DNA from: a bacterium
GTDB lineage: Bacteria; Bacillota_I; Bacilli_A; RFN20; CAG-826
Reading direction: 5' to 3'
DNA: 64,000 bases
NCBI GenBank assembly: GCA_963622135.1
Contig: CAVFGR010000015.1
Span: forward strand, 1,064 to 65,063
A program made the translations under genes and the position numbers. The notes beneath the pieces are model-generated. The model was not told where the DNA came from, did no database searches, and was given only the letters and a program-made list of their open reading frames with translations. Position 1 is the stretch's first letter, and each line of letters begins with the position of its first letter. Below, one piece after another: positions 10,845 to 56,181 of this stretch.

Positions 10845-10977
10845 AGTCTTATCTTCTTGCCAACGCGCTTCCGCGAGCGTAATATACTCACTGCGTCCAT
10901 TAGGACGATGCGTGGGGTCCGCCAGCATAGACTGTGAACCTACTAAGAAAACGATTCGTTAAAGGAGGTAACATATC

Positions 10978-11331
10978 ATGAATACCAATATCGTGAATGA
11001 GATTACCGCCCGTCAGATTCGCACCGACATTCCTTCCTTCAAAGGCGGCGACACCGTTAAGGTCTACGTCCGTATCGTTGAAGGCAAAAAGGAACGTATC
11101 CAGGCCTTCGAAGGCGTTGTCATCAAACGCCGCGGCGAAGGCGTCAGCGAGACCTTCACCGTCCGTAAGATGTCCGCTGGCATCGGTGTCGAAAGAACTT
11201 TCCCAGTCAACTCCCCAGCCATCGCCAAAATCGATGTCTTGAAGTCTGGTAAAGTCCGCCGCGCCCGCATCTACTATATGCGTGGCTTATCTGGCAAGGC
11301 TGCTCGTATCAAAGAAGTCGAGAGCAAGTAA
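10978..11331 (+). CDS. rplS: 50S ribosomal protein L19
   Basis: 117 aa L19. AAAGGAGGT RBS. Confidence 0.92.
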
Positions 11332-11345
11332 TCAGAAAAGAAATC

Positions 11346-11373
11346 AGGCTCGCCTATGGCGGGCCTTTTCTTT
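11346..11373 (+). terminator. rho-independent terminator after rplS
   Basis: AGGCTCGCC-tat-GGCGGGCCT hairpin followed by a T-rich tail. Confidence 0.55.
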
Positions 11374-11405
11374 ACCTAGCAAAAACTAAAAGATAGAATA
11401 TCCCT

Positions 11406-12275
11406 ATGAATCAGCAACAGCAGAAAAACGTTCATTATTTCCCTGGGCATATGAAAAAGGCCCTCATCTCTTTGGAGAAGTTTATTTCTGCTATCGATTT
11501 GGTCGTCGAGGTGGTGGATGCCCGCATCCCTCTTTCTTCGAGAAATCCTTTGCTTGATAAGCTAATCGGCAACAAAGCCCGCATCGTTTTTATGTCCAAA
11601 GAAGATTTGGCGGATGAAAACATCACCAAAGAATGGCTTAACTATTTCAAAGAGAAAGGCGTGATGGCTTCTTCTTCTGATTTAAAGAACGAGAAAGCGA
11701 TGCGTTTGATTGAAGAAGCCAGCAAGCCATACATTGAAAAGAAAAGATCCAAAGAGGCCAAAATCGGCATGAAACCACAGCCGTGTAGGCTCCTTATTGT
11801 CGGTGTTCCAAATGTCGGAAAATCCACCCTTATCAACAACTTGGCAGGCAAAAAAGTCGCCAAAGCAGGCAATAAGCCAGGCGTCACTCGTGCGGAGCAA
11901 TGGATAAAATTGCCATCATCTTTCATTCTTTTGGATTCCCCTGGTATTTTGCCGATGCGCTACGAAGATAAAATGGCGGCCGTCAACCTGGCTTTGACCG
12001 GTTCCATCAAAGAAGAAGTCCTCCCCATCGATGAGTTAGCTAACTTCCTATTGGATATCGTTAAGACCCGCTACCTCGAGGCCTTGAATGAACGTTACTC
12101 GATCGAAGCTTTTAGCGACACCCCTAATGACGAAATCTTTTCGGCTATCGCTCTGAAGCGTGGCTATCTTTTAAAGGGCGGTTCGCCTGATATTGAAAAA
12201 GCCAACTCCCTCCTTATCAAAGAATTCCAAGCCGGCTATCTTGGCAGGATTTCTTTAGAGGCACCGAATGCTTAA
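11406..12275 (+). CDS. rbgA: ribosome biogenesis GTPase A (YlqF/RbgA)
   Basis: Circularly permuted GTPase with VGVPNVGKST. Lies upstream of rnhB as in Bacillus. Confidence 0.85.
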   Translation: MNQQQQKNVHYFPGHMKKALISLEKFISAIDLVVEVVDARIPLSSRNPLLDKLIGNKARIVFMSKEDLADENITKEWLNYFKEKGVMASSSDLKNEKAMRLIEEASKPYIEKKRSKEAKIGMKPQPCRLLIVGVPNVGKSTLINNLAGKKVAKAGNKPGVTRAEQWIKLPSSFILLDSPGILPMRYEDKMAAVNLALTGSIKEEVLPIDELANFLLDIVKTRYLEALNERYSIEAFSDTPNDEIFSAIALKRGYLLKGGSPDIEKANSLLIKEFQAGYLGRISLEAPNA

Positions 12276-41560: not shown

Positions 41561-41700
41561 TTTGTGCCGATGGAATCACACACTTAATGAAATCAATAAG
41601 CCGGCTTTCAAATGTAAAAAACGATATGGTTGCTCTTTGTTATATTTATTGTGATACAATAATTCATTCCGTATGCCTTTTTAGGCAACAAGGAGAATTT

Positions 41701-44121
41701 ATGAGAAAAATTAGTAAATTAACAATTCTGACATTAGGGGCGATCGCTTCTGCGTGTTTGGCCTCTTGCGGGCCTGATGCCAGCGATTCCTCTGATCATA
41801 GCAGCGTTCAGCAAACGCTTACCAGCATCAAAATCGTCTCCGGCTCCATCAAGACCAGCTTCAGCCAAGGCGCAACCCCGAATTATAACAATCTCGCCAT
41901 CAACCTTCTCGACCAAGACGAGAAGAAGATGGATACCTTAAAATGGGTTGATAACAAGGACAAGATCACTTTCACGGAAATCGATACTTCCGAGTTGGCG
42001 ACGGATAAGGTCTTCACCGTTACCTATAACGATGGTCAAAACGAATTCACCGACACTTTGAAATACAATGTCGTTGAGGCCTACACTCTTTCTTCCTGGG
42101 CCGCCAATCCGAATTATTCCTATACGACCGGATATCAGGCCAACAACAAGATCTCTACCGACGAAGATAACTTGGAGAAGGGATTCATGAAGACCGCCAC
42201 CTTCTATGTTGGCAACATGAACTCCGTCAATTTGCTTCCAGAATTAAATGGTTTGAACAAAGAGACCTATGAGGTTACTGAACTTACCACCATTCCAACC
42301 GGCGCGACTGTTAAATTGGTTTCCGAAGGCAAGGATATGGTCGTTGACTCTTATATTGAAAACGCCGATTCCTTCATCAAAGATGGCCAATTGAAATTCA
42401 AAGATGGTGTCACCGGCTCTTTCGCTATCACCCTCAGCTATTCAGGCTTGCAGGATATCGTTTATAACGTCGAAGTCGTCGATGCTTATAACGTCAGCAA
42501 AGCGACCGATTTGTACGCTTTCTACACTAACAACACCAACGATTCTTCTATCTTCACTCCAGTCCATGAATTCAAGAAAGAATTAGGATTGCCTGATGCC
42601 GATAACATTGTTATCCAAAACGACATCACCATCGGCAAGAACGACATCCCTTCCGCCTTCATCTGGCAAGAAAATTGCGACGAAGTCGTCAAAGGAAGCT
42701 TGAAAGACTGGATCCGTCTTTATGAGCATCAATTCGATGACGCCAATGAAACCGCCACTGTCTATGGCAACCTCCATAAGATTTCCTTCAACACCGATGA
42801 AGACGACGAGAATATGTTCCCGTATGTCATAACCGACTCACAGGAAGGTATCGCCCAAAGCGAATCCAAGCCAATCTCTTGTCACGCTTCTTTGTTCTAT
42901 GGCACTTATGGCGCCAATCAAGATCCGTTCAATTGCCAGATTATCTTCAAAGATCTTCAGGCTTCCGGCAATAATGGCGTCGATGATACCGCCACGACAG
43001 CCAAAAAAGTTGGTCCGATGTTCTTGAAGTCCGAAGTTAACTCCAAATTTGACAACGTTTTGGTTAACAGTTTCTATATGGCTGCCATGGCTGACGGTCC
43101 TTATTCTTGGTATGAGAACGGCGTTAAGAAGTATGGCAAGCAAATCGATGGTGTCTTCATTGATCCAAAAATCGAAATTGATTCCTGTCGTTTCAATGAC
43201 TCCGCCAACGCTGCCCTCTATTTCTTCGGTCAGTCCAAAGGCGATATCAAGAACTCCGATATCACCAAAGCCGGTGGACCATTGATCTTCACCAACCCAC
43301 AAATTGAGCCGTTGCCAGATGATGTCATCTCCGCGTTAAGCTACGCCCCGACATTCTCCACTGAAGTCAATATCGATGAAAACAGCTTCCTTTCCAACTA
43401 TACCGCTGGCAAAGGCGGATGGTTCGATGCTTATAGTGCCAGCGCTATTGCCGGAACCTTACAATCCATGGATGGACTTTTCACCCCTTATGGCATGTCC
43501 TTCTTAAGAACGAAGAACGATGTTAAGAAATTCAATCTTATCTTAGTTAATCTTCCTATTTCTGGAGAAGAAGCCCTTGCGTTGCCATCTTTGGATGAAG
43601 GCTGCACCAATGTCACCATTAAGAAAGGCAACAACGTTGTTTACAGCACCCTTGATGGTTATCAAGAAGTTATGACTGCTTATGCCGCTCTCGCGGCCGC
43701 CACTCAATCTGCTGCTTCGGCTGAGGAATTAGCCACCCTCTATCAAGCTTATGCCGATGCTATCTCCAGCAGTTTCTATGGCAATAACTTAGCCTACGCT
43801 AACATTCAGAACGAAATGGTCTTTGCGGCCACTAACGGCGAAGGCAAACATGAATTTGGCATCGTCAATGTTGATCAAAGCAGTGGACAATACTATCTCT
43901 GCTCCAGCGACTACGCCATCAAAGCCGGAATGGCTGCCGCTAGCATCCCTGTCACCGTTCCAAGCAGCTATCAGCCAGGCGAAACTATGAAGAGCGCTGG
44001 ATTCTTATCCGCCACCATCAACGGAAACATCGTTTATGGCTCTTCCCAGCTTACTACCCCGACCGCCTATAACGGCGCCAACAACTACGGCGTCATCTTA
44101 GGCGACTATCACGCTATCTAA
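41701..44121 (+). CDS. large surface lipoprotein (807 aa), function unknown
   Basis: Signal peptide with lipobox LASC (MRKISKLTILTLGAIASACLASCG). AAGGAGAA RBS. Asn/Asp/Gly-rich repeats. The longest ORF (41587) was trimmed. Confidence 0.7.
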   Translation: MRKISKLTILTLGAIASACLASCGPDASDSSDHSSVQQTLTSIKIVSGSIKTSFSQGATPNYNNLAINLLDQDEKKMDTLKWVDNKDKITFTEIDTSELATDKVFTVTYNDGQNEFTDTLKYNVVEAYTLSSWAANPNYSYTTGYQANNKISTDEDNLEKGFMKTATFYVGNMNSVNLLPELNGLNKETYEVTELTTIPTGATVKLVSEGKDMVVDSYIENADSFIKDGQLKFKDGVTGSFAITLSYSGLQDIVYNVEVVDAYNVSKATDLYAFYTNNTNDSSIFTPVHEFKKELGLPDADNIVIQNDITIGKNDIPSAFIWQENCDEVVKGSLKDWIRLYEHQFDDANETATVYGNLHKISFNTDEDDENMFPYVITDSQEGIAQSESKPISCHASLFYGTYGANQDPFNCQIIFKDLQASGNNGVDDTATTAKKVGPMFLKSEVNSKFDNVLVNSFYMAAMADGPYSWYENGVKKYGKQIDGVFIDPKIEIDSCRFNDSANAALYFFGQSKGDIKNSDITKAGGPLIFTNPQIEPLPDDVISALSYAPTFSTEVNIDENSFLSNYTAGKGGWFDAYSASAIAGTLQSMDGLFTPYGMSFLRTKNDVKKFNLILVNLPISGEEALALPSLDEGCTNVTIKKGNNVVYSTLDGYQEVMTAYAALAAATQSAASAEELATLYQAYADAISSSFYGNNLAYANIQNEMVFAATNGEGKHEFGIVNVDQSSGQYYLCSSDYAIKAGMAAASIPVTVPSSYQPGETMKSAGFLSATINGNIVYGSSQLTTPTAYNGANNYGVILGDYHAI

Positions 44122-44127
44122 TAATTT

Positions 44128-46590
44128 ATGACAAATAAGGCCCTGAAAAAGAACATTTGCCTCTTTGCGGGCCTTTTTGTCGTTTTAGGGCTATCGTTCG
44201 GCTTATCTTTCATCAATAAGAGCAACTACGCTCTTAATTTCTTGCCGTTTGTCTTGCTCTTATTGGTCTTAATCGGCGGCTTCATCTTATTGAAACGCTA
44301 CCTTAAAGACCATAAAGCGAAGTCTTTTAAATCCAAATGGCTCACCAAGATGAGTGCTAGATTAGCCACCAAAGAAGGCCGTTATAAGTACCTGCTTTGT
44401 CTCCTTTCCATCATTCTTGGAATCTTGTTTTTCGCCCGTTTCTATTTCTTCAAAGGCACTTACGATTATGTAGATGCTTACGGTGGGGCGGGCTCTTTCA
44501 CTTACTACGACATTTTCCATCTCGAAAGTCAGCTATTGATGCTTCGTTTGGATCCATTGATGCTAGCTAAATACGAGTCGGTTATCGGCACGTTGGCTAA
44601 TGATTTATGGACGGCGTTGGTCGTATTGAGCTTGGTCAGCGCTTTCTATTTGGAAGAATCTTCCTTAAGCGTCCGTCGTTATATCGGCGTTCCTGGCGCC
44701 ATCTTGATCACCCTAGCCTTCCCAATCGTCCTTAAGGGCATCGTTGGGTCCGATGCGGTTTCTTATCGTTCCATCCTTATGGGCTTGGAATTGGCTATCA
44801 TTGATTTCTATTTCTTCCATAGCCTTTTTGAAGAAGGAAAGTTCAAGCTCAATAAGAAAGAGATAAGGAAAATCATCGCCATTTTGATTCCGATGTTATT
44901 GACGATGGCGACCGCTTATTCCCCATCCTTATTATTCGGAAGGACGGTTAATTTGGGCGGTTACACCTTAACCAATCCAAAAGGACCGAAGAATTTATCC
45001 CATCGTATCTATCTATATTTGGCTTTCATCTTGCCAATTTTGTACTTTGCCTTGCTATATCCTATGAGCAAAGAAGAAAGAAGAGGCGCTTTGCTGCAGA
45101 TATCATTAGGTACTTTGATTGGCTATGCCTCTATTCATCGTTATGACATCTGGACGGATTTGTCCTCTTGGCCATTACATCTTTGCAACACCGCCATGTA
45201 CACGATGCCGATAACTTTGTTATTTGCTAGTTACGGTCTTTATTACTTCACCTTCTTCGTTAACGTGTTAGGTGCTTTCTTAGCGTTATTGATGCCTAAT
45301 TTCTCGGAAACCCTATATGTTTTCGATCCGAAAATCGTGGCTTTCTTCATCAACCATTTGAACGCCTTCTTCATGCCGGTGCTAATCGTCATGTGCGGAG
45401 TATATAAGCGACCGAAGATGCGTTACTTCTTATATTCCCAGATAGGGTTCTTTGTGTATTTCGCTTTCGTTATGGCGGTCAACACTATCCTTACCGCCCA
45501 TGGCGTCTCTAGCGACTTCTTCTTCATCAATTCCTCATTCGTCGCCGATAAGTTGGGCGAATGGGCCAAAAACCTATTTAAGACAACGATTTCTTGGGAA
45601 AGCAAAGGATATACCTATGTCTTGCATTTGGCTTACGACATATCCTATTACCTTGTCTATGTCGTCTTAGCCTTCGGCATGTGGTTCTTATACGAATTGT
45701 TATTCCGAGTGACCGACGAATTGGCTGCCATTCGCTTAGCCAAAGAAAAATCAATCAGCCGTCATAAGGCTTACTTAGCCATTCACCAAGGAGGAAAAAT
45801 CATGAGCGAGAAAATTGAATTAACCATCTCTCATCTTTCCAAACGCTATCACGGGAACGATTTCTTTACCGTCAAAGATTTCTCTCTGGACTTAGAGGGC
45901 GGAAAGATCTACGGATTCCTTGGCAAGAATGGCGCAGGCAAATCTACCATCATCAAATCCATCGTTGGTATCCATGGCTTTGAGGGTGGCGAGATTGACG
46001 TCTGCGGGCATAATGTCATCGAAGAGCCATTGGAAGCTAAAAAAGAAATCGGCTTCGTTCCTGATAACTATGCCTTATATGAGAACTTGACCGGCAGACA
46101 GTACATCAGCTATATTGCTGACCTTTATCATGTTTCCAAAGAGCAAAAAGAAGAAACTGAAGAGAATCTCGTTGCCCGTTTGGAATTGGTGGACCGTTAC
46201 GACAAGCCGATGAAATCTTATAGCCACGGCATGAAGCAAAAAATCACCATCATCGCCGCTCTTATTCATAAGCCGAAAATCTGGATTTTGGATGAGCCTA
46301 TGACTGGTTTAGATCCAAATTCCATCTATCAGATCAAAGAATGCATGAGAGAACACGCTAAAGAAGGCAACATCGTCTTCTTCTCCTCCCATATCATCGA
46401 TGTCGTTAAGAACCTTTGCGACGAAGTTGTCATCATTAAGAAAGGTGACCTCATCAGGCGCATTGATTTAGACGCTGAGCCAGAAGAAAGGGAGAACCTC
46501 GAAGAGACCTTCCTTCGTTTAACCAGCGACAGTGAGGAAGAATCAAACATTTTGATTGAAGAAGAAAAGAAGGAGAAAGGAATCGCGTGA
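44128..46590 (+). CDS. polytopic membrane protein (about 14 TM, YwaF/TMEM164-like C-terminal part with PLHLCN) fused in frame to an ABC-transporter ATP-binding domain
   Basis: Continuous 820-aa ORF. The ATPase domain starts at residue 559 (Walker A GKNGAGKST, signature YSHGMKQK, Walker B ILDEP). Internal AAGGAGG plus ATG at 45788-45804. Confidence 0.7.
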   Translation: MTNKALKKNICLFAGLFVVLGLSFGLSFINKSNYALNFLPFVLLLLVLIGGFILLKRYLKDHKAKSFKSKWLTKMSARLATKEGRYKYLLCLLSIILGILFFARFYFFKGTYDYVDAYGGAGSFTYYDIFHLESQLLMLRLDPLMLAKYESVIGTLANDLWTALVVLSLVSAFYLEESSLSVRRYIGVPGAILITLAFPIVLKGIVGSDAVSYRSILMGLELAIIDFYFFHSLFEEGKFKLNKKEIRKIIAILIPMLLTMATAYSPSLLFGRTVNLGGYTLTNPKGPKNLSHRIYLYLAFILPILYFALLYPMSKEERRGALLQISLGTLIGYASIHRYDIWTDLSSWPLHLCNTAMYTMPITLLFASYGLYYFTFFVNVLGAFLALLMPNFSETLYVFDPKIVAFFINHLNAFFMPVLIVMCGVYKRPKMRYFLYSQIGFFVYFAFVMAVNTILTAHGVSSDFFFINSSFVADKLGEWAKNLFKTTISWESKGYTYVLHLAYDISYYLVYVVLAFGMWFLYELLFRVTDELAAIRLAKEKSISRHKAYLAIHQGGKIMSEKIELTISHLSKRYHGNDFFTVKDFSLDLEGGKIYGFLGKNGAGKSTIIKSIVGIHGFEGGEIDVCGHNVIEEPLEAKKEIGFVPDNYALYENLTGRQYISYIADLYHVSKEQKEETEENLVARLELVDRYDKPMKSYSHGMKQKITIIAALIHKPKIWILDEPMTGLDPNSIYQIKECMREHAKEGNIVFFSSHIIDVVKNLCDEVVIIKKGDLIRRIDLDAEPEERENLEETFLRLTSDSEEESNILIEEEKKEKGIA

Positions 46591-48326
46591 AAAAGGTAGC
46601 GAACGAAAAAACATCTGCTTTCCGACGCTTTTTCGCGGTTGATTGGCGTGCCTTTTGGGTGTTGGTGAAAATGCTTTTCTCCAACTCCATGTCCATCAAC
46701 TGGAAGAAAGATAAAAAGAAAGCCATCATCAAGATCGTTTTGAGCTTGGTCGCTTTCGCAGCGGTTGCTGCCTTATCTTACGTTTTCTTCTATTTCTGTA
46801 TTCGCTTTAGCATTTTCTCCTTGCTAGCCTTCGTTCCGATGAGCGTTCCATCTATCGTGGTGACCGTCTTATTGATCATCTCGTTTATTGCTTCCTTATC
46901 AAAAGTTACGGAAGAACTTTATTTCGGAGAAGATAACAAGGTTTTGCTCACTTTGCCAACGAACGGGAATACCTTGTTCTTGTCCCGATTGGCGGTACGC
47001 TACATCACCTCATATCGCCGTTCCTTGTTATTAGAAATCCCATTCTTGATTGGTTATTTTGCTGTTAGCAGATATCCGGTTTATATGTATTTCGTCTTGT
47101 TTGTTATCTGGGCGTTGATCGACTTAGTGATGTTATTGCTGGCTTCCCTCATAAGCGTCCCTGTTTATTACATCAAAAAGGCAATCCGCACCCACACTTG
47201 GGCTAGCATCATCGCTAAATCCATCATCTTTGCCATCATCTTGGCTTTATGTATCACCGTCATTGTCCTTGTACCTGATAATATCGATATTTTCTCGAAC
47301 TGGGGCACATACTTTGCCAAGATTCAGAACGGTCTAAATTACTACAAAAACAACCTTGGGTTCTTCTATCAAATTTCCATGGTCTATTTGGGCAATTTCA
47401 CTGGATTCAGTTTCTATTTCATGTCTCGTTCGGCTATTGCTGGTCTATGGACTTTATTGGCCATAATTGGCCTTATCGTCGTTCTATTCGTGGCATCGTT
47501 AGCTTTGGCTAGCCCGCTATATTTGAAGTTAGCCAGCGGCACTGGAGAACTTCAGGCCAAGGGCAGGAAGAATGCCAAAGAAAAAGAAAACAAGTCTTTG
47601 CCTCCGTTCATTTCTCAAATCAAGAAAGATGCCATTCTGTTCTTCAAGAATTCAGATATTTCTTCTTCCTATCTCGGAACCTTTACAGCTTTGCCTTTGT
47701 TGATCGCTTTGTTGGCCAAAATCTTCAACGCGATGGACTTAAATAGCCGTGGGGACGCTTTGGTGCAGGTCGTGAGCTTACTAATTGCTCTGCTTATCGG
47801 CTTAAGCACCAATTCGGTAATTGCCCGCATCTATTCCGAGGAAGCTGGAGCCTTCAAATTGGCGAGAACCTATCCACTTAAAGAGCATTACGCCGTCGGA
47901 AGTAAGCTCTTTATTCCTGGCGTATTTGGCTGTTTGAGTCTTGTGGCGTGCACTATCTCTTTATGTTACATCCGTCCGGAGATGCTCGAAGGAACTACCT
48001 TCATGGGCGTTGCTATGATCTTCGTTTATGTCGGACATTTGCTATACAGCGCCGGACTCGACTTCACCAATCCAAGTTCTACGTTCGGCGGTGGTTCTTT
48101 CTTAGCTAGAAACGAAAATCGCTCGGTTATCATGGCTTTTATCACTTCGGCCTTCTTTGCGGCTTTGTACTACTATTATTTCCAAGACCACATATTGTGG
48201 CTCTCGTCCTTGCAAGCGACCGCCGGATTCAAGGTATTCATCTTAGGTGTCATCTATCTAGCTTTTAACATCATTCTCTATATTCGCAAAATCAAATACA
48301 TTTACAAAACGGGGGAGGTCTTATGA
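46587..48326 (+). CDS. ABC-2-type exporter permease-like polytopic membrane protein
   Basis: 579 aa with about 12 TM. GTG start overlapping the upstream stop (GTGA). AAGGAGAAAGG RBS. Confidence 0.65.
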   Translation: MKKVANEKTSAFRRFFAVDWRAFWVLVKMLFSNSMSINWKKDKKKAIIKIVLSLVAFAAVAALSYVFFYFCIRFSIFSLLAFVPMSVPSIVVTVLLIISFIASLSKVTEELYFGEDNKVLLTLPTNGNTLFLSRLAVRYITSYRRSLLLEIPFLIGYFAVSRYPVYMYFVLFVIWALIDLVMLLLASLISVPVYYIKKAIRTHTWASIIAKSIIFAIILALCITVIVLVPDNIDIFSNWGTYFAKIQNGLNYYKNNLGFFYQISMVYLGNFTGFSFYFMSRSAIAGLWTLLAIIGLIVVLFVASLALASPLYLKLASGTGELQAKGRKNAKEKENKSLPPFISQIKKDAILFFKNSDISSSYLGTFTALPLLIALLAKIFNAMDLNSRGDALVQVVSLLIALLIGLSTNSVIARIYSEEAGAFKLARTYPLKEHYAVGSKLFIPGVFGCLSLVACTISLCYIRPEMLEGTTFMGVAMIFVYVGHLLYSAGLDFTNPSSTFGGGSFLARNENRSVIMAFITSAFFAALYYYYFQDHILWLSSLQATAGFKVFILGVIYLAFNIILYIRKIKYIYKTGEVL

Positions 48327-48838
48327 AAAAAGGTGTTGCCGTCTTAGTTAGCGCGATATGCCTTTTGGCCGTGGTTTTCGTTACGGTCTTCGGCACTCGC
48401 CCACAAGGTATCGTCCCTGTCATTTACATTACCAATCTCACCATCAAGCCAAGTGACAACAGCCGCTACTGGACCACTGATAGCGGTGTGCATCAATGCG
48501 TTATCGAATATGATCCAAATAAGGAAGTCACCGATGGCGAAGATTGCTATATGCCTTATATTTTTGTCACTGACATTCTTCCTGAAAACGCAACGAACAG
48601 AAGCTTTGTTTATACCCTCGCTAAGGAATATGAAAACTACATCACCTTCTCTTCTGGCGACCAAGCTGCTAGACAAGGCGCTTTCCTTATCAAAAAGATC
48701 ACTGACCGTGCAGATCCAATGGTCGTTTCCATCTCCGTTTCCCCGCAAGATGGCGGCAGTGGCAAAGGCGACACTTTAAAGATCGTCATTGTCTACGACA
48801 AGGTCTATGGAAGTTCTTCGACTCCAAGTGGCGATTAG
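48323..48838 (+). CDS. small signal-anchored exported protein
   Basis: N-terminal TM/signal MKKGVAVLVSAICLLAVVFV. GGGGGAGG RBS. ATGA overlap with the upstream gene. Confidence 0.55.
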   Translation: MKKGVAVLVSAICLLAVVFVTVFGTRPQGIVPVIYITNLTIKPSDNSRYWTTDSGVHQCVIEYDPNKEVTDGEDCYMPYIFVTDILPENATNRSFVYTLAKEYENYITFSSGDQAARQGAFLIKKITDRADPMVVSISVSPQDGGSGKGDTLKIVIVYDKVYGSSSTPSGD

Positions 48839-48914
48839 CCCGTTCTTTTATTCAATAATCTAGAATGCTAAAATCTTGACGGATATTTTACTTTGCAAAA
48901 TATCACTATAAACG

Positions 48915-51734
48915 ATGCAATATTTCTACCTAACATTAGTAGCTCTTTCTCCGGTTGTTCTCAGCATCGTTTTCTTTTTGCTTGATAAATACACGAAATT
49001 CAAGAATCTCAAATACATAGTCAAACAAATTATCTACGGCATCGCTTTCGGCGGACTAGCCATAGTTGGCACTGAATGTGGCATTCCTATCTCGGGGGCT
49101 CAAATCAATTGCCGTGACGCTGCCGTATTAACTGCTGGGCTTATGTTTGGTGGGCCAGCCGGCATGATTGCTGGTGTTATCGGTGGCGTTGAACGTTTTG
49201 TTAGCGTTTATTGGGGCGTTTCCTCTTTCACCCAAATCGCTTGCAGCGTCTCTACTATTTTGGCTGGCGCTTACGCTTGGTTAATTCGCAAATTCATGCT
49301 TGAAAACAATCGCCCGGGAATCTTCTTTGGCTTTTGCGCTGCGGTGGTTATGGAAATCTTCCATTTGGCCATGATTTTCTTCACCAACTTCAGCGCTCAA
49401 GCGGAAGCTATGGCGGTGGTTAGGGCCGCAACCCTCCCAATGGTTTTAAGCAATGGATTGTCTGTGGCGGTTTCAACCTTAGTCATGACCTTGCTTAACA
49501 AGGAGAAACTTTTTGCTAAACTTAGAGACACGAAAACATCGAAAATCGTTCAGCAATGGCTTCTTTTGACGGTTGTTATTGGTTTCTTAGCTTCCGGTGT
49601 TTTCGTTTATAGCTTCCAAACCTCATTAGCCAAGAGCGAGGCTAAAGAATCATTGAATTTGGCTATTTCGGATACCGAGGCGGACATCAAAGATAAGTCT
49701 GATGCGAACATCTTATCTATTTGTCATGATGTGGCCTCTGATTTAACAGCGGGTGATGACATCGATCTTATCGCTGATAGACGTGACGTAACTGATATTC
49801 ATGTCGTTAATAGCAAAGGCATCATTATCAAGAGCACTGATCTATCCTTAATTGGTTGGGATATGCATAATTCCGACCAATCGGAAGAATTCCTATGCCT
49901 TTTGGATGGAAAGACCACGTCTTATGTTCAGGCTTATGGACCGATTGGCTCAAATGAAGAAATCTATCGTAAGTTTGCAGGCGTTACCTATGATGATGGC
50001 TTCGTTCAAGTTGGATATGATGGCGAGCGTCTTCAAAGAGATATTGCCGAGCAAGTCAACAACGTAACCAAGAACCGCCATATCGGCAAAGGAGGATGCG
50101 TCCTCGTCCTCGACCAAAATAAGCAAATAGTTTCTGGCCCAGATTCATTTATGAAGGGCGGGCCGCTGGAAAGTGGCAACAGTTCCTTCCCAATTTCCGA
50201 TACTTTCAAAGTTACCGTAAAGGGAACGGAATACTATTGTGTCTATGCCATGTCGGAAGGCTATTACATCGTTTCCTTGTTGCCAATCGAAGAAGCTTTG
50301 GCTGATCGCAACGTTTCGTTATACCTAAGCACCTTCATGGAAGTAATTGTTTTCGCAATTATATTTGCTTTGGTTTACGGCTTAATCGAAAAGACGGTCG
50401 TCAAGCAACTTAAGCATGTCAATAAGACCTTGTACGCCATTTCCAATGGAGACCTTTCATTGGCGGTAGATGTTAGAGGTTCATTGGAAATGTCCTATCT
50501 TTCCAACGACATCAATAGAACCGTTGATTCGATGAAGAAGTTGATTTCCGAAGCCAACCAAAGAATCGACGATGAGTTGGAATTCGCTAAGCAGATTCAA
50601 TCGTCTTCCTTACCGGTTATCACTGAAAAAGTGAGTAAGCGGCAAGAATTCGATATATACGCCTCTATGAAAACCGCCAAAGAAGTCGGTGGGGATTTCT
50701 ATGATTTCTACGGAAATGAAAAGAACTTCAACATTATGATTGCCGATGTCTCGGGCAAAGGCATTCCAGCCGCGATGTTTATGATGCGTGCCAAAGCCGA
50801 CCTTAGGACCTTGACGGAAGCTGACAAGCCTTTAGATGAGGTTTTTACCTCTGCTAACTCCTCTTTGTGCGATCGTAATGATGCCGGAATGTTCGTCACG
50901 GCGTGGCAAGGGAACATCGATTTAGAAACCGGTCTTCTTACCTTCGTCAATGGTGGACATAACCCTCCATTAATCAAAAAAGCCTCAACTGGAAAATTTG
51001 AATACCTTAAGTCTAAAGCCGGCTTTATCTTAGGCGGGATGGAGGGATTCAAATATCGTTCCAATACCCTTCAATTGGAACCTGGGGATGTTCTTTTCCT
51101 TTATACCGACGGTATCACCGAAGCCGTTGATAACGATCTTAAATTGTATGGCGAACAACGTCTGCTTGATTTGCTCAATAAGACCGAGGCTAAGAATATG
51201 AAAGAACTCTGCCTAGAAGTCTCGAAAGATATCGAAGTTTTCTCCAACGGTGCCCAGCAGGCTGACGATATCACTATGCTGGCCTTCGAATATAAAGGGA
51301 TTGTGCCAATTCCAAGCATTCATTTCGATGAAGCTAAGTTAACGGATATTGAGCAAATGACCGAATTCCTTAATGCCGAACTAAACAAATGCCAATGCCT
51401 TAAGAAAGAACGTTATCAGCTCGATGTCGCCCTTGATGAAGTGGTCTCTAACATCATCAATCATGGATATGACGGGAAGCCGGGGCCACTTACGATGTCT
51501 GTCGAATATCGTGAAGACAGGAATGCCATCTATCTCAAATTTATCGATAAGGGCATTCCGTACAACCCGCTTCATAATTCCGATCCAAACCTCGATGTTT
51601 CCTTGGAAGAGAGGAAAGTCGGCGGAGTTGGCATCTATATCGTCAAGAACACGATGGACGATATGAAGTACAAATATGAAGATGGGCAAAATATTTTGAC
51701 TTTGACAAAGCTTCTTAATAAGGAAGGGGAATAA
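48915..51734 (+). CDS. membrane sensor protein: 7-TM + periplasmic sensor + HAMP + PP2C (SpoIIE/RsbU-type) phosphatase + GHKL anti-sigma-type Ser kinase (RsbW-like) domain
   Basis: PP2C motifs GGDFYDF, DVSGKG, TDGITEA, ADDIT. HATPase_c_2 motifs VVSNIINHGY...GGVGIYIV. Confidence 0.85.
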   Translation: MQYFYLTLVALSPVVLSIVFFLLDKYTKFKNLKYIVKQIIYGIAFGGLAIVGTECGIPISGAQINCRDAAVLTAGLMFGGPAGMIAGVIGGVERFVSVYWGVSSFTQIACSVSTILAGAYAWLIRKFMLENNRPGIFFGFCAAVVMEIFHLAMIFFTNFSAQAEAMAVVRAATLPMVLSNGLSVAVSTLVMTLLNKEKLFAKLRDTKTSKIVQQWLLLTVVIGFLASGVFVYSFQTSLAKSEAKESLNLAISDTEADIKDKSDANILSICHDVASDLTAGDDIDLIADRRDVTDIHVVNSKGIIIKSTDLSLIGWDMHNSDQSEEFLCLLDGKTTSYVQAYGPIGSNEEIYRKFAGVTYDDGFVQVGYDGERLQRDIAEQVNNVTKNRHIGKGGCVLVLDQNKQIVSGPDSFMKGGPLESGNSSFPISDTFKVTVKGTEYYCVYAMSEGYYIVSLLPIEEALADRNVSLYLSTFMEVIVFAIIFALVYGLIEKTVVKQLKHVNKTLYAISNGDLSLAVDVRGSLEMSYLSNDINRTVDSMKKLISEANQRIDDELEFAKQIQSSSLPVITEKVSKRQEFDIYASMKTAKEVGGDFYDFYGNEKNFNIMIADVSGKGIPAAMFMMRAKADLRTLTEADKPLDEVFTSANSSLCDRNDAGMFVTAWQGNIDLETGLLTFVNGGHNPPLIKKASTGKFEYLKSKAGFILGGMEGFKYRSNTLQLEPGDVLFLYTDGITEAVDNDLKLYGEQRLLDLLNKTEAKNMKELCLEVSKDIEVFSNGAQQADDITMLAFEYKGIVPIPSIHFDEAKLTDIEQMTEFLNAELNKCQCLKKERYQLDVALDEVVSNIINHGYDGKPGPLTMSVEYREDRNAIYLKFIDKGIPYNPLHNSDPNLDVSLEERKVGGVGIYIVKNTMDDMKYKYEDGQNILTLTKLLNKEGE

Positions 51735-51736
51735 GC

Positions 51737-52918
51737 ATGGACAACATTAGTTACAAATTGGAAAATGGGACTTTAACGGTTTTCGTTTCAGGGAGAATCG
51801 ATTCTTCGAACGCTCAAGAGTTTGATAGCGAATTAGAATTAATCCGCACGAATAATGCACACAATGCATTGGTGCTAGACGCCGAGAATCTTGAATATAC
51901 CTCCAGCGCCGGTTTACGCGCTATCCTACGCGTTTTGAAACTCGAACCGGGTATGAAAATCATCAATGCCTCCAGCGAAGTTTATGACATTTTCGAGATG
52001 ACTGGTTTCACCGAATTGATGACTATTCAAAAGGCTTACCGTCACATTTCGGTGGAAGGAGCTGAACTTATCGGACAAGGTGCGACGGGCAAAGTCTATA
52101 GAACCGCACCTGACACCATCGTTAAAGTCTATTTCGATTCAAATTCCCTTTCTGATATCGAAAGAGAAATCAAAATGGCTAGAAGGGCCTTCGTTTTAGG
52201 CATTCCGACCGCGATTCCGTTTGATATCGTCAAGGTTGGCGATAATTTTGGTTCGGTTTTCGAGATGCTTAACGCCGATTCCTTCGCGAAGTGCGTCATC
52301 AATGATCCCAATAATATTGATAAATATATCGATTTAAGCGTCGATCTTATGAAGAAAATCCATCACGCCGAAGTGAAGCCTGAAGAGATGGCGGACCAAA
52401 AGGCCGTTTTCCGTAAGAGAGTCGACTTTGCTAAAAATTACCTAAGCAAAGAAAGATACGAGAAATTGTCGAAGATGTATGAAGCCATCCCGGAAAGCAA
52501 TCACATGCTTCACGGCGATCTCCATTTCAAAAACATGATGATGCAAAATGGCGAAGTCCTCTTGATCGATATGGACACCCTTTGCCATGGAGACCCAATC
52601 TTTGAATTTGCCAGCATCTATGATGCCTACCTTGGCTTTTCGGAATTTGATCACGAGAACATTCATGATTTCTTAGGCATTACCTATGAGCAGGGCCAAC
52701 ACGTCTGGCAAAAGACGGTTGAGGACTATTTCGAGACTAAAGATGAAAACCGCATCAAAGAAATAACCGAGAAAGTACAAGTTTTAAGCCATCTTCGCCT
52801 CTTCCATCACATCATTACCCATGGGTTGGATACCGATGAAGAACATAAAAAGCAAAGAGACGGCTATCTCCATCTTCTCGAAAAAGCCATCGATGACGTT
52901 GATAACCTAATTCTCTAG
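51737..52918 (+). CDS. STAS (anti-sigma antagonist) domain fused to an APH/protein-kinase-like phosphotransferase domain
   Basis: STAS loop LEYTSSAGLRAIL. Kinase motifs IGQGATGKVYR, VKVY, HGDLHFKNMMM, LIDMD. Confidence 0.8.
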   Translation: MDNISYKLENGTLTVFVSGRIDSSNAQEFDSELELIRTNNAHNALVLDAENLEYTSSAGLRAILRVLKLEPGMKIINASSEVYDIFEMTGFTELMTIQKAYRHISVEGAELIGQGATGKVYRTAPDTIVKVYFDSNSLSDIEREIKMARRAFVLGIPTAIPFDIVKVGDNFGSVFEMLNADSFAKCVINDPNNIDKYIDLSVDLMKKIHHAEVKPEEMADQKAVFRKRVDFAKNYLSKERYEKLSKMYEAIPESNHMLHGDLHFKNMMMQNGEVLLIDMDTLCHGDPIFEFASIYDAYLGFSEFDHENIHDFLGITYEQGQHVWQKTVEDYFETKDENRIKEITEKVQVLSHLRLFHHIITHGLDTDEEHKKQRDGYLHLLEKAIDDVDNLIL

Positions 52919-52927
52919 GAGTTGAAG

Positions 52928-53227
52928 ATGGAAATAACTAAAAATTTAGATAGTGGGAAAGTCATTCTTTCCCTCAAAGGAAGGCTCGATACGGTCACTT
53001 CGCCAGAACTTGATAGAGTCATGAAAGAGACCTTTGAAGAAACCAATGATCTCGTTCTCGATTTAAAGGGACTGGACTATGTTTCATCTTCGGGCTTGCG
53101 TTTGTTTTTGATTGGTTATAAAACCATGTCCGGGAAAGGCGGACGCTTCTCCCTTATAAATGTCAATGAAGTCGTTATGGATGTCCTTGAAATGACGGGC
53201 TTCAACGATCTTCTATCCAACAATTAA
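52928..53227 (+). CDS. stand-alone STAS-domain anti-sigma-factor antagonist (SpoIIAA/RsbV-like)
   Basis: Phosphorylatable loop DYVSSSGLRLFL. TAGGAG RBS. The ORF track starts at an upstream TTG at 52922. Confidence 0.8.
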   Translation: MEITKNLDSGKVILSLKGRLDTVTSPELDRVMKETFEETNDLVLDLKGLDYVSSSGLRLFLIGYKTMSGKGGRFSLINVNEVVMDVLEMTGFNDLLSNN

Positions 53228-53243
53228 AATCTGGAGGTACAAC

Positions 53244-53885
53244 ATGTTGAAATTATTGGCCAGCTCTTCCGATTCAGGAAAAAATGTCGATGTCGGTTTA
53301 ATCGTCGCGATTGTCTTAGGCATCGCTCTTATTGTCACGTTGGTTGTCTTTATTATCTACACCATCAATCTTAAAAAAGGTGTCTCTTTCTTATACACCA
53401 TCGTCGGCAGCGAAGCCGATACGACCATCGATTCGGCCATCGAAAAGAACGAAACGGCCAAAAAAGACATGAAGAAAGGCGTCGTCACCGACTATAACAA
53501 GCAAAGAAAAGAAATCGCTAAGGAATACGATAAAAAGATCAAAGAGATTAACGCTGGCTACGCCAAACAAGTTAAAGAGACCAGAAAGCAGGCCAACGCC
53601 GCCATCAAGGTAGCGAAGGAAGACGAAGATGCCGAAGGACTTACCCAAATCCGCGAGAAATTAGACATCGACGTCCGCAATATCAACGCTTCCAAACGCG
53701 CTGAAGTTGATCCGGTGGTTACCGAAAAGAACGCTAAGTTAAAGGAAATCGAAGACCAATATAAGCCATCGCTTATCACCTATCAGAGGGTTTTGGCGGT
53801 TTCTAGACACACAAAACCTGTCGCAAAAATTTTAAAGAAATGCAAAGAAAAAGAATACGCTTTGCCAGACTACGATAAGCAATAA
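53244..53885 (+). CDS. membrane-anchored coiled-coil protein
   Basis: One TM (LIVAIVLGIALIVTLVVFIIY) followed by a K/E-rich helical region. GGAGGT RBS. Confidence 0.55.
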   Translation: MLKLLASSSDSGKNVDVGLIVAIVLGIALIVTLVVFIIYTINLKKGVSFLYTIVGSEADTTIDSAIEKNETAKKDMKKGVVTDYNKQRKEIAKEYDKKIKEINAGYAKQVKETRKQANAAIKVAKEDEDAEGLTQIREKLDIDVRNINASKRAEVDPVVTEKNAKLKEIEDQYKPSLITYQRVLAVSRHTKPVAKILKKCKEKEYALPDYDKQ

Positions 53886-53935: not shown

Positions 53936-54111
53936 TATGGGTGGGAAACTTTTTTATTCGTTGACACTTTTTAAGGCCATCAAAAAAATGTATCCGCTTT
54001 CATTTATGAGGGTTAAAATTATTTTACAATCGAAATAAGCTATTCGGCTTTCTAGGGAGGATTTTTGCCACATAGTTTATTTCCAAAAACTTGCAAATAG
54101 AAAGGAAACAC

Positions 54112-56181
54112 ATGAAAAAATATTGGCAAGAGCACAAAAAGAGCCTGCTCTGGTTGATTATTGGAATCGTCATGATCTTTGTCACCAGCTTTGCTCAATT
54201 TTTGGTGCAAACAGACGGCTGTAGTGTCAAGGTCTCTGATTTAAGAGATGAGACCAATACCGGCACTATCAGCTTGAATTACACGGACGACACCGGCGCC
54301 TCCGCGACCGGCGACTTCGAAATCAAAGGCGAAGTCAAGTCTGGCATCTTATTCGTCCCTAAGGATGCCTCCGCTGAAAACAAGAAGCCTGGCATCGTCC
54401 TCACTCACGGCTATTTGAATAACCGTGAACTCCAGCTTCCTAACGCTATCGAATTGGCAAGAAGAGGCTTTGTCGTCTTGACCGTTGACCGCGAAGGTCA
54501 TGGTAACTACAACAACGACGATGATGCGGGCGCGTTGATGGCCACCAAGGGCTTATATGAATCCGCTAAGTATTTATATAACCTTGATTACGTTGATCAG
54601 AGCATGATCGGTATCTCCGGTCACTCCATGGGTGGTTTCACCACTGCCATGGCCTTGATCACCGATATGAGTCAGCAGACCTTAACCCTCAATCGCAAGA
54701 GCGTTAAAGCTGATGGTTATCACATCATCAAAGCTGGTCTTATGCAAGGTTGGAGCTCCTTCATGGGCGCCGCCCCTGATGTCAGCGTTGGCTTATTGAA
54801 AGCCACTGATGACGAATTCTTCTTCACTTCTAAGGATTTGGAAGGAAATAAGACCATTTCCAGAGAATTCCTTCATAGCACCGGTGCCGCTTCCTTCGTT
54901 AAGATGGACACCACTGGTTTAACCGAAATCAACGTTCAGAACTGCGCTCGTTACGTCAATGGCGTCGTCGTTGACAAGAAGCCTGGCGAAGCCGTTGGCG
55001 AACCGTTCCGTGCTATCTACGAAGCCGATGAAATCCACCCACTCAACCACTGGTCAGTGACCAGCACCAGAAACGTCTTAGACTTCTTCTACGGCGCTTT
55101 CGGTACCCCAAACGGACACAAATACATCGCCGAAGGTCGTCAGACCTGGGTCGTTAAGGAATTATTCTCCTTCGCCGGCATGCTTTCCTTGTTGTCCTTA
55201 ATCGTCCCATGCGTCAGCTTGATGCTCACTATCCCGTTCTTCAAGTCATTGAAGAAAAAACGCATCGCTGCAGTCGCTGCCGATGGCACTATCGCTACCA
55301 GAGAAGTCGAAGTTACGAAAGAAGCCATCGAAGAAGAAAAGAAACCTCTCAAGAAGTGGTATTCTCACTTGTTCTATTGGATCCCAGCCGTTGTTTGCGC
55401 GGTCTTCGCGGGCTTCTCTATCCAGAAGTTCTGCACCGAATGGGCCGATAAGATCTTCCCGAATTCTCAGTTGTTCCCGCAGGATACAACCAACTGGGTC
55501 GCTGTCTGGACTGCCGCTTGCGGTATCTTCGTCTGCATCGTGACCTTGCTCGTCTACATCGTTAAGTACTGCATCAACAAGGGCAGAGTCGCCCATGGCA
55601 AAGAGCCAATTGATGCTGATAACCCATTCGCTACCGCCAAGGTTTCTTCCTTCGGTAACGCCTTAAAGACCATCTTATTGGCCTGCATCGTCGTCTTCTT
55701 ACTCTACTTAGTCGTCTTCATCAACTGGAAAGCCTGGGTTGTTGACTTCCGTCTCTGGACGCTCGTCATCAAGGTCTTCAACGTCTCTAGCATGATGCCA
55801 ACCATCCTCCGCTACTTGCCGTGGTTCGCCGTTTACTACATCCTTTCCGGCATTGCCAACCAGACCTTCAGAGCCAAGAACATCCCAGATTGGGCCACCA
55901 TCGCCATCAACTCGTTCTTCAACGTCGTTGGCTTGGTCTTGGTTATCGCCATCCAGTATGGCACCTTCAAGTCCACTGGCGTCTTATGGCAGGGGAATAT
56001 GGCCTTAGGCTACATCGTCCTCTTCCCGACGATCGGCGTCCTTATCATCGCCGCCATCCTTTCCCGTGTTCTCTACAAGAAGACCGGAAACATTTGGCTT
56101 GGTTCCTTAATCAACGCTCTCTTATTCACCATCATCACAGTTTCCAACACTGCTGCTAGCTGGGGATATGTCTTCGCGTAA
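54112..56181 (+). CDS. alpha/beta-hydrolase (dienelactone hydrolase/S9-like) domain fused to a C-terminal polytopic membrane domain
   Basis: GISGHSMGG nucleophile elbow, N-terminal TM, about 8 C-terminal TM. AAAGGAAA RBS. The ORF track starts at 54091. Confidence 0.7.
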   Translation: MKKYWQEHKKSLLWLIIGIVMIFVTSFAQFLVQTDGCSVKVSDLRDETNTGTISLNYTDDTGASATGDFEIKGEVKSGILFVPKDASAENKKPGIVLTHGYLNNRELQLPNAIELARRGFVVLTVDREGHGNYNNDDDAGALMATKGLYESAKYLYNLDYVDQSMIGISGHSMGGFTTAMALITDMSQQTLTLNRKSVKADGYHIIKAGLMQGWSSFMGAAPDVSVGLLKATDDEFFFTSKDLEGNKTISREFLHSTGAASFVKMDTTGLTEINVQNCARYVNGVVVDKKPGEAVGEPFRAIYEADEIHPLNHWSVTSTRNVLDFFYGAFGTPNGHKYIAEGRQTWVVKELFSFAGMLSLLSLIVPCVSLMLTIPFFKSLKKKRIAAVAADGTIATREVEVTKEAIEEEKKPLKKWYSHLFYWIPAVVCAVFAGFSIQKFCTEWADKIFPNSQLFPQDTTNWVAVWTAACGIFVCIVTLLVYIVKYCINKGRVAHGKEPIDADNPFATAKVSSFGNALKTILLACIVVFLLYLVVFINWKAWVVDFRLWTLVIKVFNVSSMMPTILRYLPWFAVYYILSGIANQTFRAKNIPDWATIAINSFFNVVGLVLVIAIQYGTFKSTGVLWQGNMALGYIVLFPTIGVLIIAAILSRVLYKKTGNIWLGSLINALLFTIITVSNTAASWGYVFA

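Follow-up and report, generated by a model that had tools for sequence, protein, structure and literature searches.

Partner switching, which joins a PP2C phosphatase, a STAS protein and a GHKL kinase, is a major signalling scheme outside the two-component systems, and both its inputs and its outputs other than sigma factors are poorly known. The locus described here raises the question of how the two ends of such a scheme might be arranged around one membrane protein. It lies in a window of 64,000 nucleotides, the whole stretch of DNA that was analysed, from a bacterium of the GTDB lineage CAG-826 (assembly GCA_963622135.1, contig CAVFGR010000015.1, positions 1,064 to 65,063 of the forward strand). 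At its centre is an open reading frame (ORF), 48915..51734 (+), for a protein of 939 residues, hereafter called the sensor. A preliminary description of the sequence had proposed that a STAS kinase and a STAS phosphatase sit on this one protein and that a single extracellular signal toggles between them. The reading that we favour, and which we consider probable though well short of certain, is that the sensor is a membrane-bound serine phosphatase and kinase of the partner-switching type with STAS proteins as substrates, belonging to a large family of gut and rumen bacteria.

Five modules in a single chain

The sensor gene starts with ATG and is uninterrupted; its product is arranged as a LytS-type block of seven transmembrane (TM) helices, TM8, a dCache domain, TM9, a HAMP domain, a PP2C domain and a GHKL domain. 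Three Pfam matches are above their cut-offs: 5TM-5TMR_LYT (PF07694) at residues 33-190 (81 bits against 24.6, E 1e-22), SpoIIE/PP2C (PF07228) at residues 602-793 (173.9 bits against 25, 4.6e-51) and HATPase_c_2 (PF13581) at residues 807-932 (73.2 bits against 27.4, 2.5e-20). Two more are below threshold, namely dCache_1 (PF02743) at residues 379-454 (E = 0.004, 17.1 bits, under the gathering score of 45) and HAMP (PF00672) at residues 493-540 (E = 0.038, 14.7 bits, under the cut-off of 25). Invariance and conservation were counted in a family alignment of 47 sensor relatives, and a second set of 115 much more divergent representatives was used for wider conservation. The PF07228 match in the sensor spans profile positions 2-191 of 192, and all 47 relatives match this model too. 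Together with the matches in the family and the fold of the ectodomain described below, these results confirm the ORF and, with HAMP as a very probable one, the five modules of the preliminary description.

Searches with the whole sensor returned homologues in 235 protein clusters at E<=1e-5, the best 120 of which are all about 930-950 residues long with an identical domain set; the few with a name are annotated as 'SpoIIE family protein phosphatase' (Clostridia bacterium). NCBIfam models for SiaA, SpoIIE, RssB, RsbW and SpoIIAB all match the sensor below threshold, and it fails every NCBIfam equivalog cut-off. A protein with so many modules might be a chimeric assembly, or two genes fused by a sequencing error. 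Nothing was found in support of this, and more than 100 independent clusters, drawn from many assemblies and sources, share the architecture of about 935 residues. The same architecture is present in 17 GTDB species genomes and in a 159-kb contig of a metagenome-assembled genome (MAG) that holds a near-identical copy of the entire sensor neighbourhood. The chance that the ORF is an artefact is, in our view, vanishingly small.

The PP2C/PPM serine phosphatase domain, of the SpoIIE/RsbU class, occupies residues 579-796 (50649..51302 (+)) according to PF07228 and Foldseek. The catalytic aspartates that it would need were checked on the alignment and are present and invariant in 47 sequences: D594 and D597 (GGDFYD), D611 (ADVSGKG), the pair D732-G733 (YTDG) and the pair D784-D785 (DDIT). 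We take the aspartates to be those of PPM motifs I, II (DxSG), VIII (DG) and XI (DD/DN). A GHKL ATPase domain of the RsbW/SpoIIAB serine-kinase class follows at residues 800-935 (51312..51719 (+); PF13581). It is equally intact over the same 47 sequences, with N-box residues E842 and N846, G1 residues D878 and G880 and G2 residues G903, G904 and G906 all invariant. Judged by these motifs, both catalytic domains look active.

The closest solved relative by sequence is the RsbU+RsbW structure of Rv1364c (3ke6, 3.3e-13), and 3ke6 is also closest by fold, with a Foldseek match (3.6e-18) that covers 366 columns across PP2C and GHKL. Further Foldseek matches to the PP2C domain are SiaA (6k4e, TMt 0.85), RssB, SpoIIE and RsbX. 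The NCBIfam models for RsbW (8e-10) and SpoIIAB (5e-6) align to sensor residues 832-937 under their cut-offs, and equivalog identity to RsbW or SpoIIAB fails on score (NF003144, 38.3 against 145; TIGR01924, 31.6 against 155; TIGR01925, 26.5 against 135). Neither Pfam nor NCBIfam gave a match to HisKA, His_kinase or GAF in the sensor, which thus does not belong to the histidine kinases of the LytS family. Since there is no DHp/His domain, the GHKL domain is assigned to the serine-kinase/anti-sigma class and not to the histidine kinases.

STAS genes often accompany the kinase-bearing form of the sensor

Two STAS genes follow the sensor directly. The first, 51737..52918 (+), encodes 393 residues, in which a STAS domain (residues 1-105, with S57 as candidate phospho-acceptor) is fused to an APH/ChoK-like kinase (Pfam STAS 5.8e-10 and APH 1.9e-14; TIGR02172 8.5e-32). 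This STAS-APH gene starts 2 nucleotides past the sensor stop, and its Shine-Dalgarno sequence lies inside the sensor 3' end. The second gene, 52928..53227 (+), encodes a single-domain STAS protein of 99 residues (Pfam STAS 1.3e-16, TIGR00377 1.4e-22); its ATG at 52928 follows the STAS-APH gene after a gap of 9 nucleotides, with AGGAG 7 nucleotides ahead. The TTG at 52922 that is listed as its start is probably wrong, and 99 residues from the ATG are also called in the near-identical MAG contig (L083). Both STAS domains have a serine at position -2 from the conserved G-L, within the motif 'VSSSGL' in the free STAS protein, and from alignment to the D-S-x-G-L motif we assume that this serine occupies the position of SpoIIAA Ser58.

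The STAS-APH fusion is itself a very large family: in a search, 7946 clusters passed E<=1e-5, and each of the best 120 combines STAS with APH in about 390 residues. Conservation reaches at least 90% in the motifs 'SSAGLR', GxGxxGKVY, VKVY, HGDxHxKN and IDMD. Family members are annotated only as 'anti-sigma factor antagonist', and a literature search on STAS-APH fusions found nothing relevant.

How tightly the STAS genes go with the sensor can be judged only against the range of forms that the sensor takes. The N-terminal 545 residues, searched against 1.84 billion representatives (50%-identity level), gave 1728 matches at E<=1e-3, of which 317 also passed E<=1e-30. About 80 of the best 150 of these relatives have the order LytS-dCache-HAMP-PP2C without a kinase domain (about 810 residues), and in about 46 the GHKL domain is present (about 940 residues). 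The remainder are mostly fragment-like; in a few, LytS or dCache is missing or dCache is doubled. No output domain other than PP2C(-GHKL) was found among these 150, so the N-terminal sensor cassette appears to be dedicated to PP2C output. Judged from these architectures, the fused GHKL kinase is an accessory, found in roughly one third of the lineage. The doubled dCache ectodomain of a few relatives (P0289, P0295, P0346 and P0311, about 970-1020 residues) is a further elaboration on the input side.

We surveyed 80 related loci in GTDB species genomes, mostly MAGs of gut and rumen Clostridia with some Coriobacteriia, Flexilinea, Fibrobacter and others, and based the neighbour statistics on those whose flanks reach 1.5 kb or more on each side (45 GHKL-containing and 11 GHKL-lacking). 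Of the loci with the GHKL domain, 34/45 have a STAS gene no more than 3 kb away, versus 0/11 of those without it (Fisher p=4.7e-6), and a STAS-APH fusion lies within 5 kb in 12/45 versus 0/11. The STAS-APH gene adjoins the PP2C-GHKL gene itself in 17 of 65 GHKL-containing loci, as against none of 14 that lack the domain. Among the 17 full-length GTDB relatives alone, STAS genes are close by in 12 and STAS-APH in 8. Near the kinase-less sensors (P0241-P0390; GTDB L011, L041, L049, L054, L055, L058, L061, L062 and L072) no STAS or kinase gene was found, so their substrates must be encoded elsewhere. We regard the STAS-APH fusion as the probable substrate and output of the sensor, and the free STAS protein as a probable substrate of both its kinase and its phosphatase.

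These counts also bear on a different role for the fused kinase domain, in which GHKL would bind the adjacent PP2C domain or autophosphorylate to regulate it, and phosphorylated STAS would be made by another kinase. The title of Greenstein 2009 has the domains of Rv1364c communicating within a single polypeptide, and the commoner form of the family is without GHKL, so that the phosphatase can pair with a kinase encoded elsewhere. However, the ATP-binding boxes of the GHKL domain are invariant, and STAS genes co-occur specifically with the GHKL-containing form, as would be expected if a fused kinase needs its own substrate. A purely intramolecular role for the kinase domain thus strikes us as very improbable.

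Alternatively, the output might be transcription: the GHKL domain would hold a sigma factor at the membrane, and STAS proteins dephosphorylated by PP2C would set it free. HATPase_c_2 is an anti-sigma-factor family, the RsbW and SpoIIAB models align to the sensor at the values given above, and both STAS proteins match the anti-sigma-antagonist model TIGR00377. Those RsbW and SpoIIAB scores are, on the other hand, far under the equivalog cut-offs (38 against 145 and 26 against 135). No conserved sigma factor neighbour was found in the window, at the related loci or in the annotated contexts of relatives, and no sigma gene adjoins the sensor in the window or in those contexts, although a target could be encoded in trans. 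The ECF-type sigma gene that lies some 1 kb upstream in L001 is matched at no other locus; the neighbour that does recur is the STAS-APH kinase rather than a sigma factor. We therefore judge a sigma factor to be a distinctly unlikely target. Given that there is no sigma gene in cis and that STAS-APH is a recurrent partner, the output likely consists of the STAS proteins and/or the APH-like kinase.

At other loci the STAS-APH gene has a companion of its own. An HD_4 gene (RelA/SpoT-type HD hydrolase, PF13328) is directly upstream of it in 10 of about 17 fusion-bearing loci (L001, at 10835-11410, and L002, L010, L015, L018, L035, L040, L044, L070 and L071), which suggests a kinase/hydrolase pair that acts on a common small molecule. 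The HD_4 gene is absent from this window.

Nine predicted membrane helices and a BtsS-type receptor block

The N-terminal 200 residues (48915..49514 (+)) form a LytS/BtsS-type 7-TM receptor module with the S-component fold, assigned by PF07694, with its N-terminus outside and its C-terminus inside the cell. After a K/R-rich cytoplasmic loop (residues 195-207), the chain leaves the cell through TM8 (residues 208-238; 49536..49628 (+); hydropathy) and re-enters the cytoplasm through TM9 (residues 466-491; 50310..50387 (+); hydropathy 2.43), behind which lies a K-rich segment. In the full-length AlphaFold2 (AF2) model (predicted local distance difference test, pLDDT, 84.4) the helices of the LytS module are 2-26, 34-54, 67-78, 80-99, 104-128, 136-157 and 162-194. 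A break at the invariant G79/P81 splits the stretch 67-99 into two of these, and the TM8 helix (208-278) runs unbroken into the ectodomain.

Simple hydropathy gives eight hydrophobic stretches, not nine, and the preliminary description presumably started from that count. The mean number of K+R residues per loop in the 47 relatives is 3.7, 0, 0 (the 78-81 turn), 0, 3.8, 0 and 4.9 (loop 195-207) along the LytS module, 0.6 where the ectodomain begins and 3.5 past TM9. This pattern obeys the positive-inside rule only if residues 67-99 cross the membrane twice, which argues for a TM3/TM4 hairpin. E. coli BtsS, which has the same Pfam module, has been shown experimentally to have seven TM helices and a periplasmic N-terminus (PMC10653868). 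The helix break in the AF2 model, the K+R pattern of the family and the BtsS topology together imply nine membrane helices in the predicted structure: the 7-TM N-out/C-in module (residues 1-194), TM8, the ectodomain and TM9. An eight-TM, N-in topology based on hydropathy was rejected, since it would put the K-rich loop 24-34 outside and conflicts with AF2, with the K+R counts and with BtsS. The preliminary description is one helix short in its TM count and numbering, and the ectodomain that it had placed between TM7 and TM8 lies between TM8 and TM9. That this region (about residues 250-480) might be cytoplasmic was checked by the same charge counts, which argue against it; its bounds are now 239-465.

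The LytS module has been described as the S-component fold of energy-coupling factor (ECF) transporters with an additional N-terminal helix (PMC11109136). PF07694 is matched by 47/47 relatives, and an ECF S-component model gives a weak match in the sensor and is touched by 32/47 of them as well, in agreement with that fold. The pyruvate contacts of BtsS, R72, R99, C110 and S113, align to R67, R94, C110 and S113 of the sensor, each of which is at least 90% conserved in the 47 sequences. Among the 115 divergent representatives these residues are retained in 106, 108, 102 and 66, respectively, with Ala at the position of S113 in 39. Mean column conservation in this wider set is 0.52 for the 7-TM module versus 0.31-0.39 for the parts of the ectodomain. 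Because the 7-TM block is the best-conserved part of the sensor, it is probably more than an anchor, and we predict it to be a ligand-binding receptor of the BtsS type. Pyruvate or a similar small acid is, from the aligned residues, a reasonable candidate ligand of the intramembrane pocket.

A dCache ectodomain linked to the phosphatase through a probable HAMP domain

Between TM8 and TM9 lies an extracytoplasmic dCache domain (residues 239-465; 49629..50309 (+)) in which two PAS-like alpha/beta modules follow a long N-terminal helix, as seen by AF2 and Foldseek. Modelled alone, the ectodomain has a pLDDT of 85.8 and a predicted template modelling score (pTM) of 0.79. The best 50 Foldseek matches of this model in the PDB are all dCache sensor domains, with probability 1.00 and TM-scores of about 0.4, and they bear out the Cache-type fold that had been proposed from the sequence. 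They include Tlp3 (the best, 1.4e-9), Mlp24, Mlp37, PctA, DctB, KinD and Chlamydia RsbU (6mab, 4.3e-7). By sequence the domain is a divergent dCache: dCache_1 is matched at E<=0.01 in 13/47 relatives (best 4.1e-7), and a profile of the ectodomain gave one weak match to PDB sequences (6mni, E=0.078), in the membrane-proximal module only. The ectodomain is acidic (38 D+E versus 20 K+R). Its candidate pocket residues vary, with R352 retained in 44/115 representatives.

TM9 leads directly into a HAMP domain (residues ~492-545) and a continuous helical linker (to ~578) that enters PP2C (50388..50648 (+); Pfam, AF2). The AF2 model has a helix at 463-510, a loop and a second helix at 524-565 that is continuous to PP2C. 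HAMP is matched at E<=0.01 in 30/47 relatives (best 5.5e-6), and G512, E525, L529 and N534 are invariant in 47 sequences. NCBIfam models of histidine kinases and chemoreceptors also align here, over residues 465-560 (TM-HAMP). Although the sensor sequence alone is under threshold, the segment after TM9 is very probably a HAMP domain, and the HAMP-like linker ahead of PP2C in the preliminary description finds support in the helix-loop-helix and in the relatives.

With two putative receptors in one chain, the dCache ectodomain might do all the sensing, and the 7-TM block would then be a membrane anchor or a dimerisation scaffold. dCache is the commonest extracellular ligand-binding domain, and the best fold matches of the ectodomain are all to ligand-binding domains. 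In the GTDB relatives L019, L026, L037 and L060 the order is dCache-HAMP-PP2C-GHKL and the LytS block is dispensed with, the match beginning at about query residue 202; the modules evidently shuffle. But the 7-TM block is better conserved than the ectodomain (0.52 versus 0.31-0.39), its BtsS ligand-contact residues are kept in about 90% of the 115 representatives, and it is the ectodomain whose candidate pocket is variable. In BtsS, moreover, the same 7-TM fold is itself the ligand-binding site (PMC10653868). Sensing through dCache alone seems to us unlikely. Of the single extracellular signal that had been proposed, the dCache domain stands as a candidate input; that it is the sole input is unlikely, as the 7-TM block keeps the four BtsS pyruvate-contact residues.

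A proposed mechanism and its weak points

In the mechanism that we propose for the partner-switching sensor, the input would be a ligand in the membrane pocket (pyruvate, for instance, or another small carboxylate or alpha-keto acid) and/or in the dCache domain. Occupancy would be relayed through HAMP and the helical linker so as to alter the state of a dimeric PP2C. Sensor domains have been proposed to control the PP2C dimers of RsbU-type phosphatases through a coiled-coil linker (PMC12143880). The changed state of the PP2C dimer would set the balance between kinase and phosphatase, as phosphorylation of the REC domain does in SypE. By homology, the GHKL domain would phosphorylate the conserved Ser of both downstream STAS proteins (S57 of STAS-APH and the Ser of 'SSSGL' in the free protein), and the PP2C domain would take the phosphate off again. 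The output would then be the phosphorylation state of the STAS proteins, with the tethered APH-like kinase and/or a target of the free STAS protein as effector, as with SypA. Toggling between kinase and phosphatase states, as it was first put forward, is something that we infer by analogy with such systems.

A more specific version can be formulated, in which two chemically distinct inputs, a pyruvate-like acid and the dCache ligand, are written onto the STAS domain of STAS-APH and so control a small-molecule or protein kinase and not a sigma factor. We offer this as a tentative idea that is rather more likely to be wrong than right. If true, it would mean a new output class for partner-switching systems that is widespread in gut Clostridia and often paired with an HD_4 hydrolase.

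Several points weigh against the partner-switching sensor as we picture it. The kinase-less form of about 810 residues is commoner than the five-module form; the GHKL domain is accordingly an accessory, and the kinase may be constitutive and not regulated by the signal. Adjacency is frequent and not universal, since three full-length relatives, all on long contigs, are without a STAS gene beside them. The full-length AF2 model has a pTM of only 0.53, and the predicted hairpin and domain packing are read from DSSP strings and loop-charge statistics. As for the ligand, both Arg residues of the BtsS pocket are conserved across LytS kinases, while Cys (71%) and Ser (79%) vary more and possibly determine specificity (PMC10653868). 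Since R72 and R99 are thus general to LytS kinases and only C110 and S113 may be related to specificity, pyruvate is a candidate.

Relation to known systems

The nearest counterpart of the catalytic half is Rv1364c of Mycobacterium tuberculosis, which likewise places an RsbW-type GHKL domain right after PP2C on a single chain and works by partner-switching logic. Unlike the sensor, Rv1364c is cytoplasmic, with a PAS sensor and a STAS domain fused at its C-terminus (PMC12143880). The sensor instead has a 9-TM input of LytS, dCache and HAMP, and its STAS proteins are encoded by separate genes, one of them fused to APH. It fails membership of the Rv1364c type (PAS-PP2C-RsbW-STAS), as it has neither PAS nor fused STAS; only the PP2C-GHKL core is in common.

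In its logic the sensor resembles SypE from Vibrio fischeri, which also combines an RsbW-like serine kinase and a PP2C domain in one protein and uses an input domain to switch their balance. SypE switches between kinase and phosphatase activity on the single-domain STAS protein SypA (PMC10120452), and SypA is a downstream output in place of a sigma factor (PMC10120452, PMC8256260). In contrast to the sensor, SypE is soluble, has the order kinase-REC-PP2C and receives its input by phosphotransfer from a histidine kinase; the sensor has the order PP2C-kinase, with direct sensing at the membrane or outside the cell. There is no Response_reg match in the sensor and the domain order is reversed, so that it is not of the SypE type. 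The proposal that a STAS kinase and a STAS phosphatase share one sensor is thus sustained by the intact motifs and the downstream STAS genes, whereas the idea is not new, Rv1364c and SypE having preceded it.

For each half of the input there is a known counterpart. RsbU of Chlamydia trachomatis (6mab) is a transmembrane phosphatase with a periplasmic domain of the dCache fold; it dephosphorylates the STAS proteins RsbV1 and RsbV2, and its periplasmic domain binds acids of the tricarboxylic acid cycle. It differs from the sensor in that it is without the LytS 7-TM module and without a fused kinase, RsbW being separate. E. coli BtsS (YehU) shares the 7-TM N-out module PF07694, including the four aligned pyruvate-contact residues. 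Behind this module BtsS has GAF and a histidine kinase that passes its signal to a LytTR regulator, whereas the sensor has TM, dCache, TM and HAMP there, with Ser/Thr chemistry and no DHp/His domain.

SiaA of Pseudomonas aeruginosa (SiaABC) has the PP2C fold that superposes best on that of the sensor (6k4e) and is its best NCBIfam match (3.5e-20), with a score of 72 that is far under the equivalog cut-off of 700. Its partner kinase, small substrate protein and non-sigma output resemble the role proposed here. The kinase SiaB, though, differs in fold and is not part of the SiaA chain, and the SiaC substrate is not known to be a STAS protein. The sensor also shares its families with RsbU-RsbV-RsbW-SigB and SpoIIE-SpoIIAA-SpoIIAB-SigF of Bacillus subtilis, namely PP2C, phospho-Ser STAS and GHKL serine kinase. 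The B. subtilis phosphatase is controlled via an N-terminal helical linker (PMC12143880), to which the linker of the sensor may be likened. Those systems differ, however, in that their components are separate proteins and their target is a sigma factor; the sensor fuses kinase to phosphatase and has no sigma gene in cis.

The HAMP-PP2C arrangement is documented as well (PMC12143880), and a 5TMR-PPM fusion figures in a 2024 listing among unexpected architectures and is described there as mainly archaeal (PMC11109136). Already documented, too, are the fusion of PP2C to an RsbW kinase (Rv1364c), the bifunctional STAS kinase/phosphatase (SypE) and a dCache-PP2C protein that binds organic acids (Chlamydia RsbU). 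A tandem of a 7-TM LytS block and dCache that feeds a single PP2C-GHKL unit appears to be undescribed, and so do its abundance among bacterial gut metagenomes and the pairing of a PP2C-GHKL sensor with a STAS-APH kinase. The sensor would work in the manner of the Rv1364c, SypE and LytS systems, yet it belongs to no named one.

Flanking genes and transcription signals

The ATG of the sensor follows a 77-nucleotide gap (48839..48914) and has no recognisable Shine-Dalgarno sequence, while both downstream genes have strong ones. A consensus scan found no convincing promoter for the sensor. Across promoter and terminator scans the numbers of sites were lower than in shuffled controls (19 versus 25.5 and 15 versus 16.2), and the scans set no limits to the operon. 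PADLOC gave no match for the sensor or the STAS genes, and a reading of the locus as a defence system was dropped.

Upstream of the sensor, 41587..44121 (+) encodes 844 residues that begin like a lipoprotein (LASC motif) and match no Pfam family at E<=0.001. The next gene, 44128..46590 (+), encodes 820 residues with a multi-TM domain of the TMEM164 family (9e-16) and a C-terminal ABC ATPase, an unusual ABC architecture. It forms an operon of overlapping starts with 46587..48326 (+) (579 residues, multi-TM, permease-like) and 48323..48838 (+) (171 residues); neither of these two proteins has a Pfam match. Downstream, 53244..53885 (+) begins 17 nucleotides past the STAS gene and encodes a 213-residue protein in which a single TM helix at the N-terminus is accompanied by a helical tail rich in Lys/Glu; this protein is present only in the near-identical contig and has weak matches only (DUF2254, ZorA). 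It is followed by 54091..56181 (+), whose 696-residue product has an N-terminal alpha/beta-hydrolase domain (S9/S33-like) and a long multi-TM C-terminal region. We excluded all six genes from the system, because the near-identical MAG contig is the only other place where they adjoin the sensor.

Significance

Since it is already established that kinase and phosphatase can reside on one protein, this sensor comes as less of a surprise. Its value lies at the two ends of partner switching. For the inputs, it offers a handle in the form of a pocket with mapped BtsS pyruvate residues, wired to Ser/Thr chemistry instead of to a histidine kinase; for the outputs, the recurrent STAS-fused APH-like kinase is a candidate effector. 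The sensor cassette and the STAS-APH fusion are both uncharacterised families, and the cassette is abundant in gut and rumen metagenomes. Sensing of pyruvate or other organic acids by these families could bear on gut ecology.

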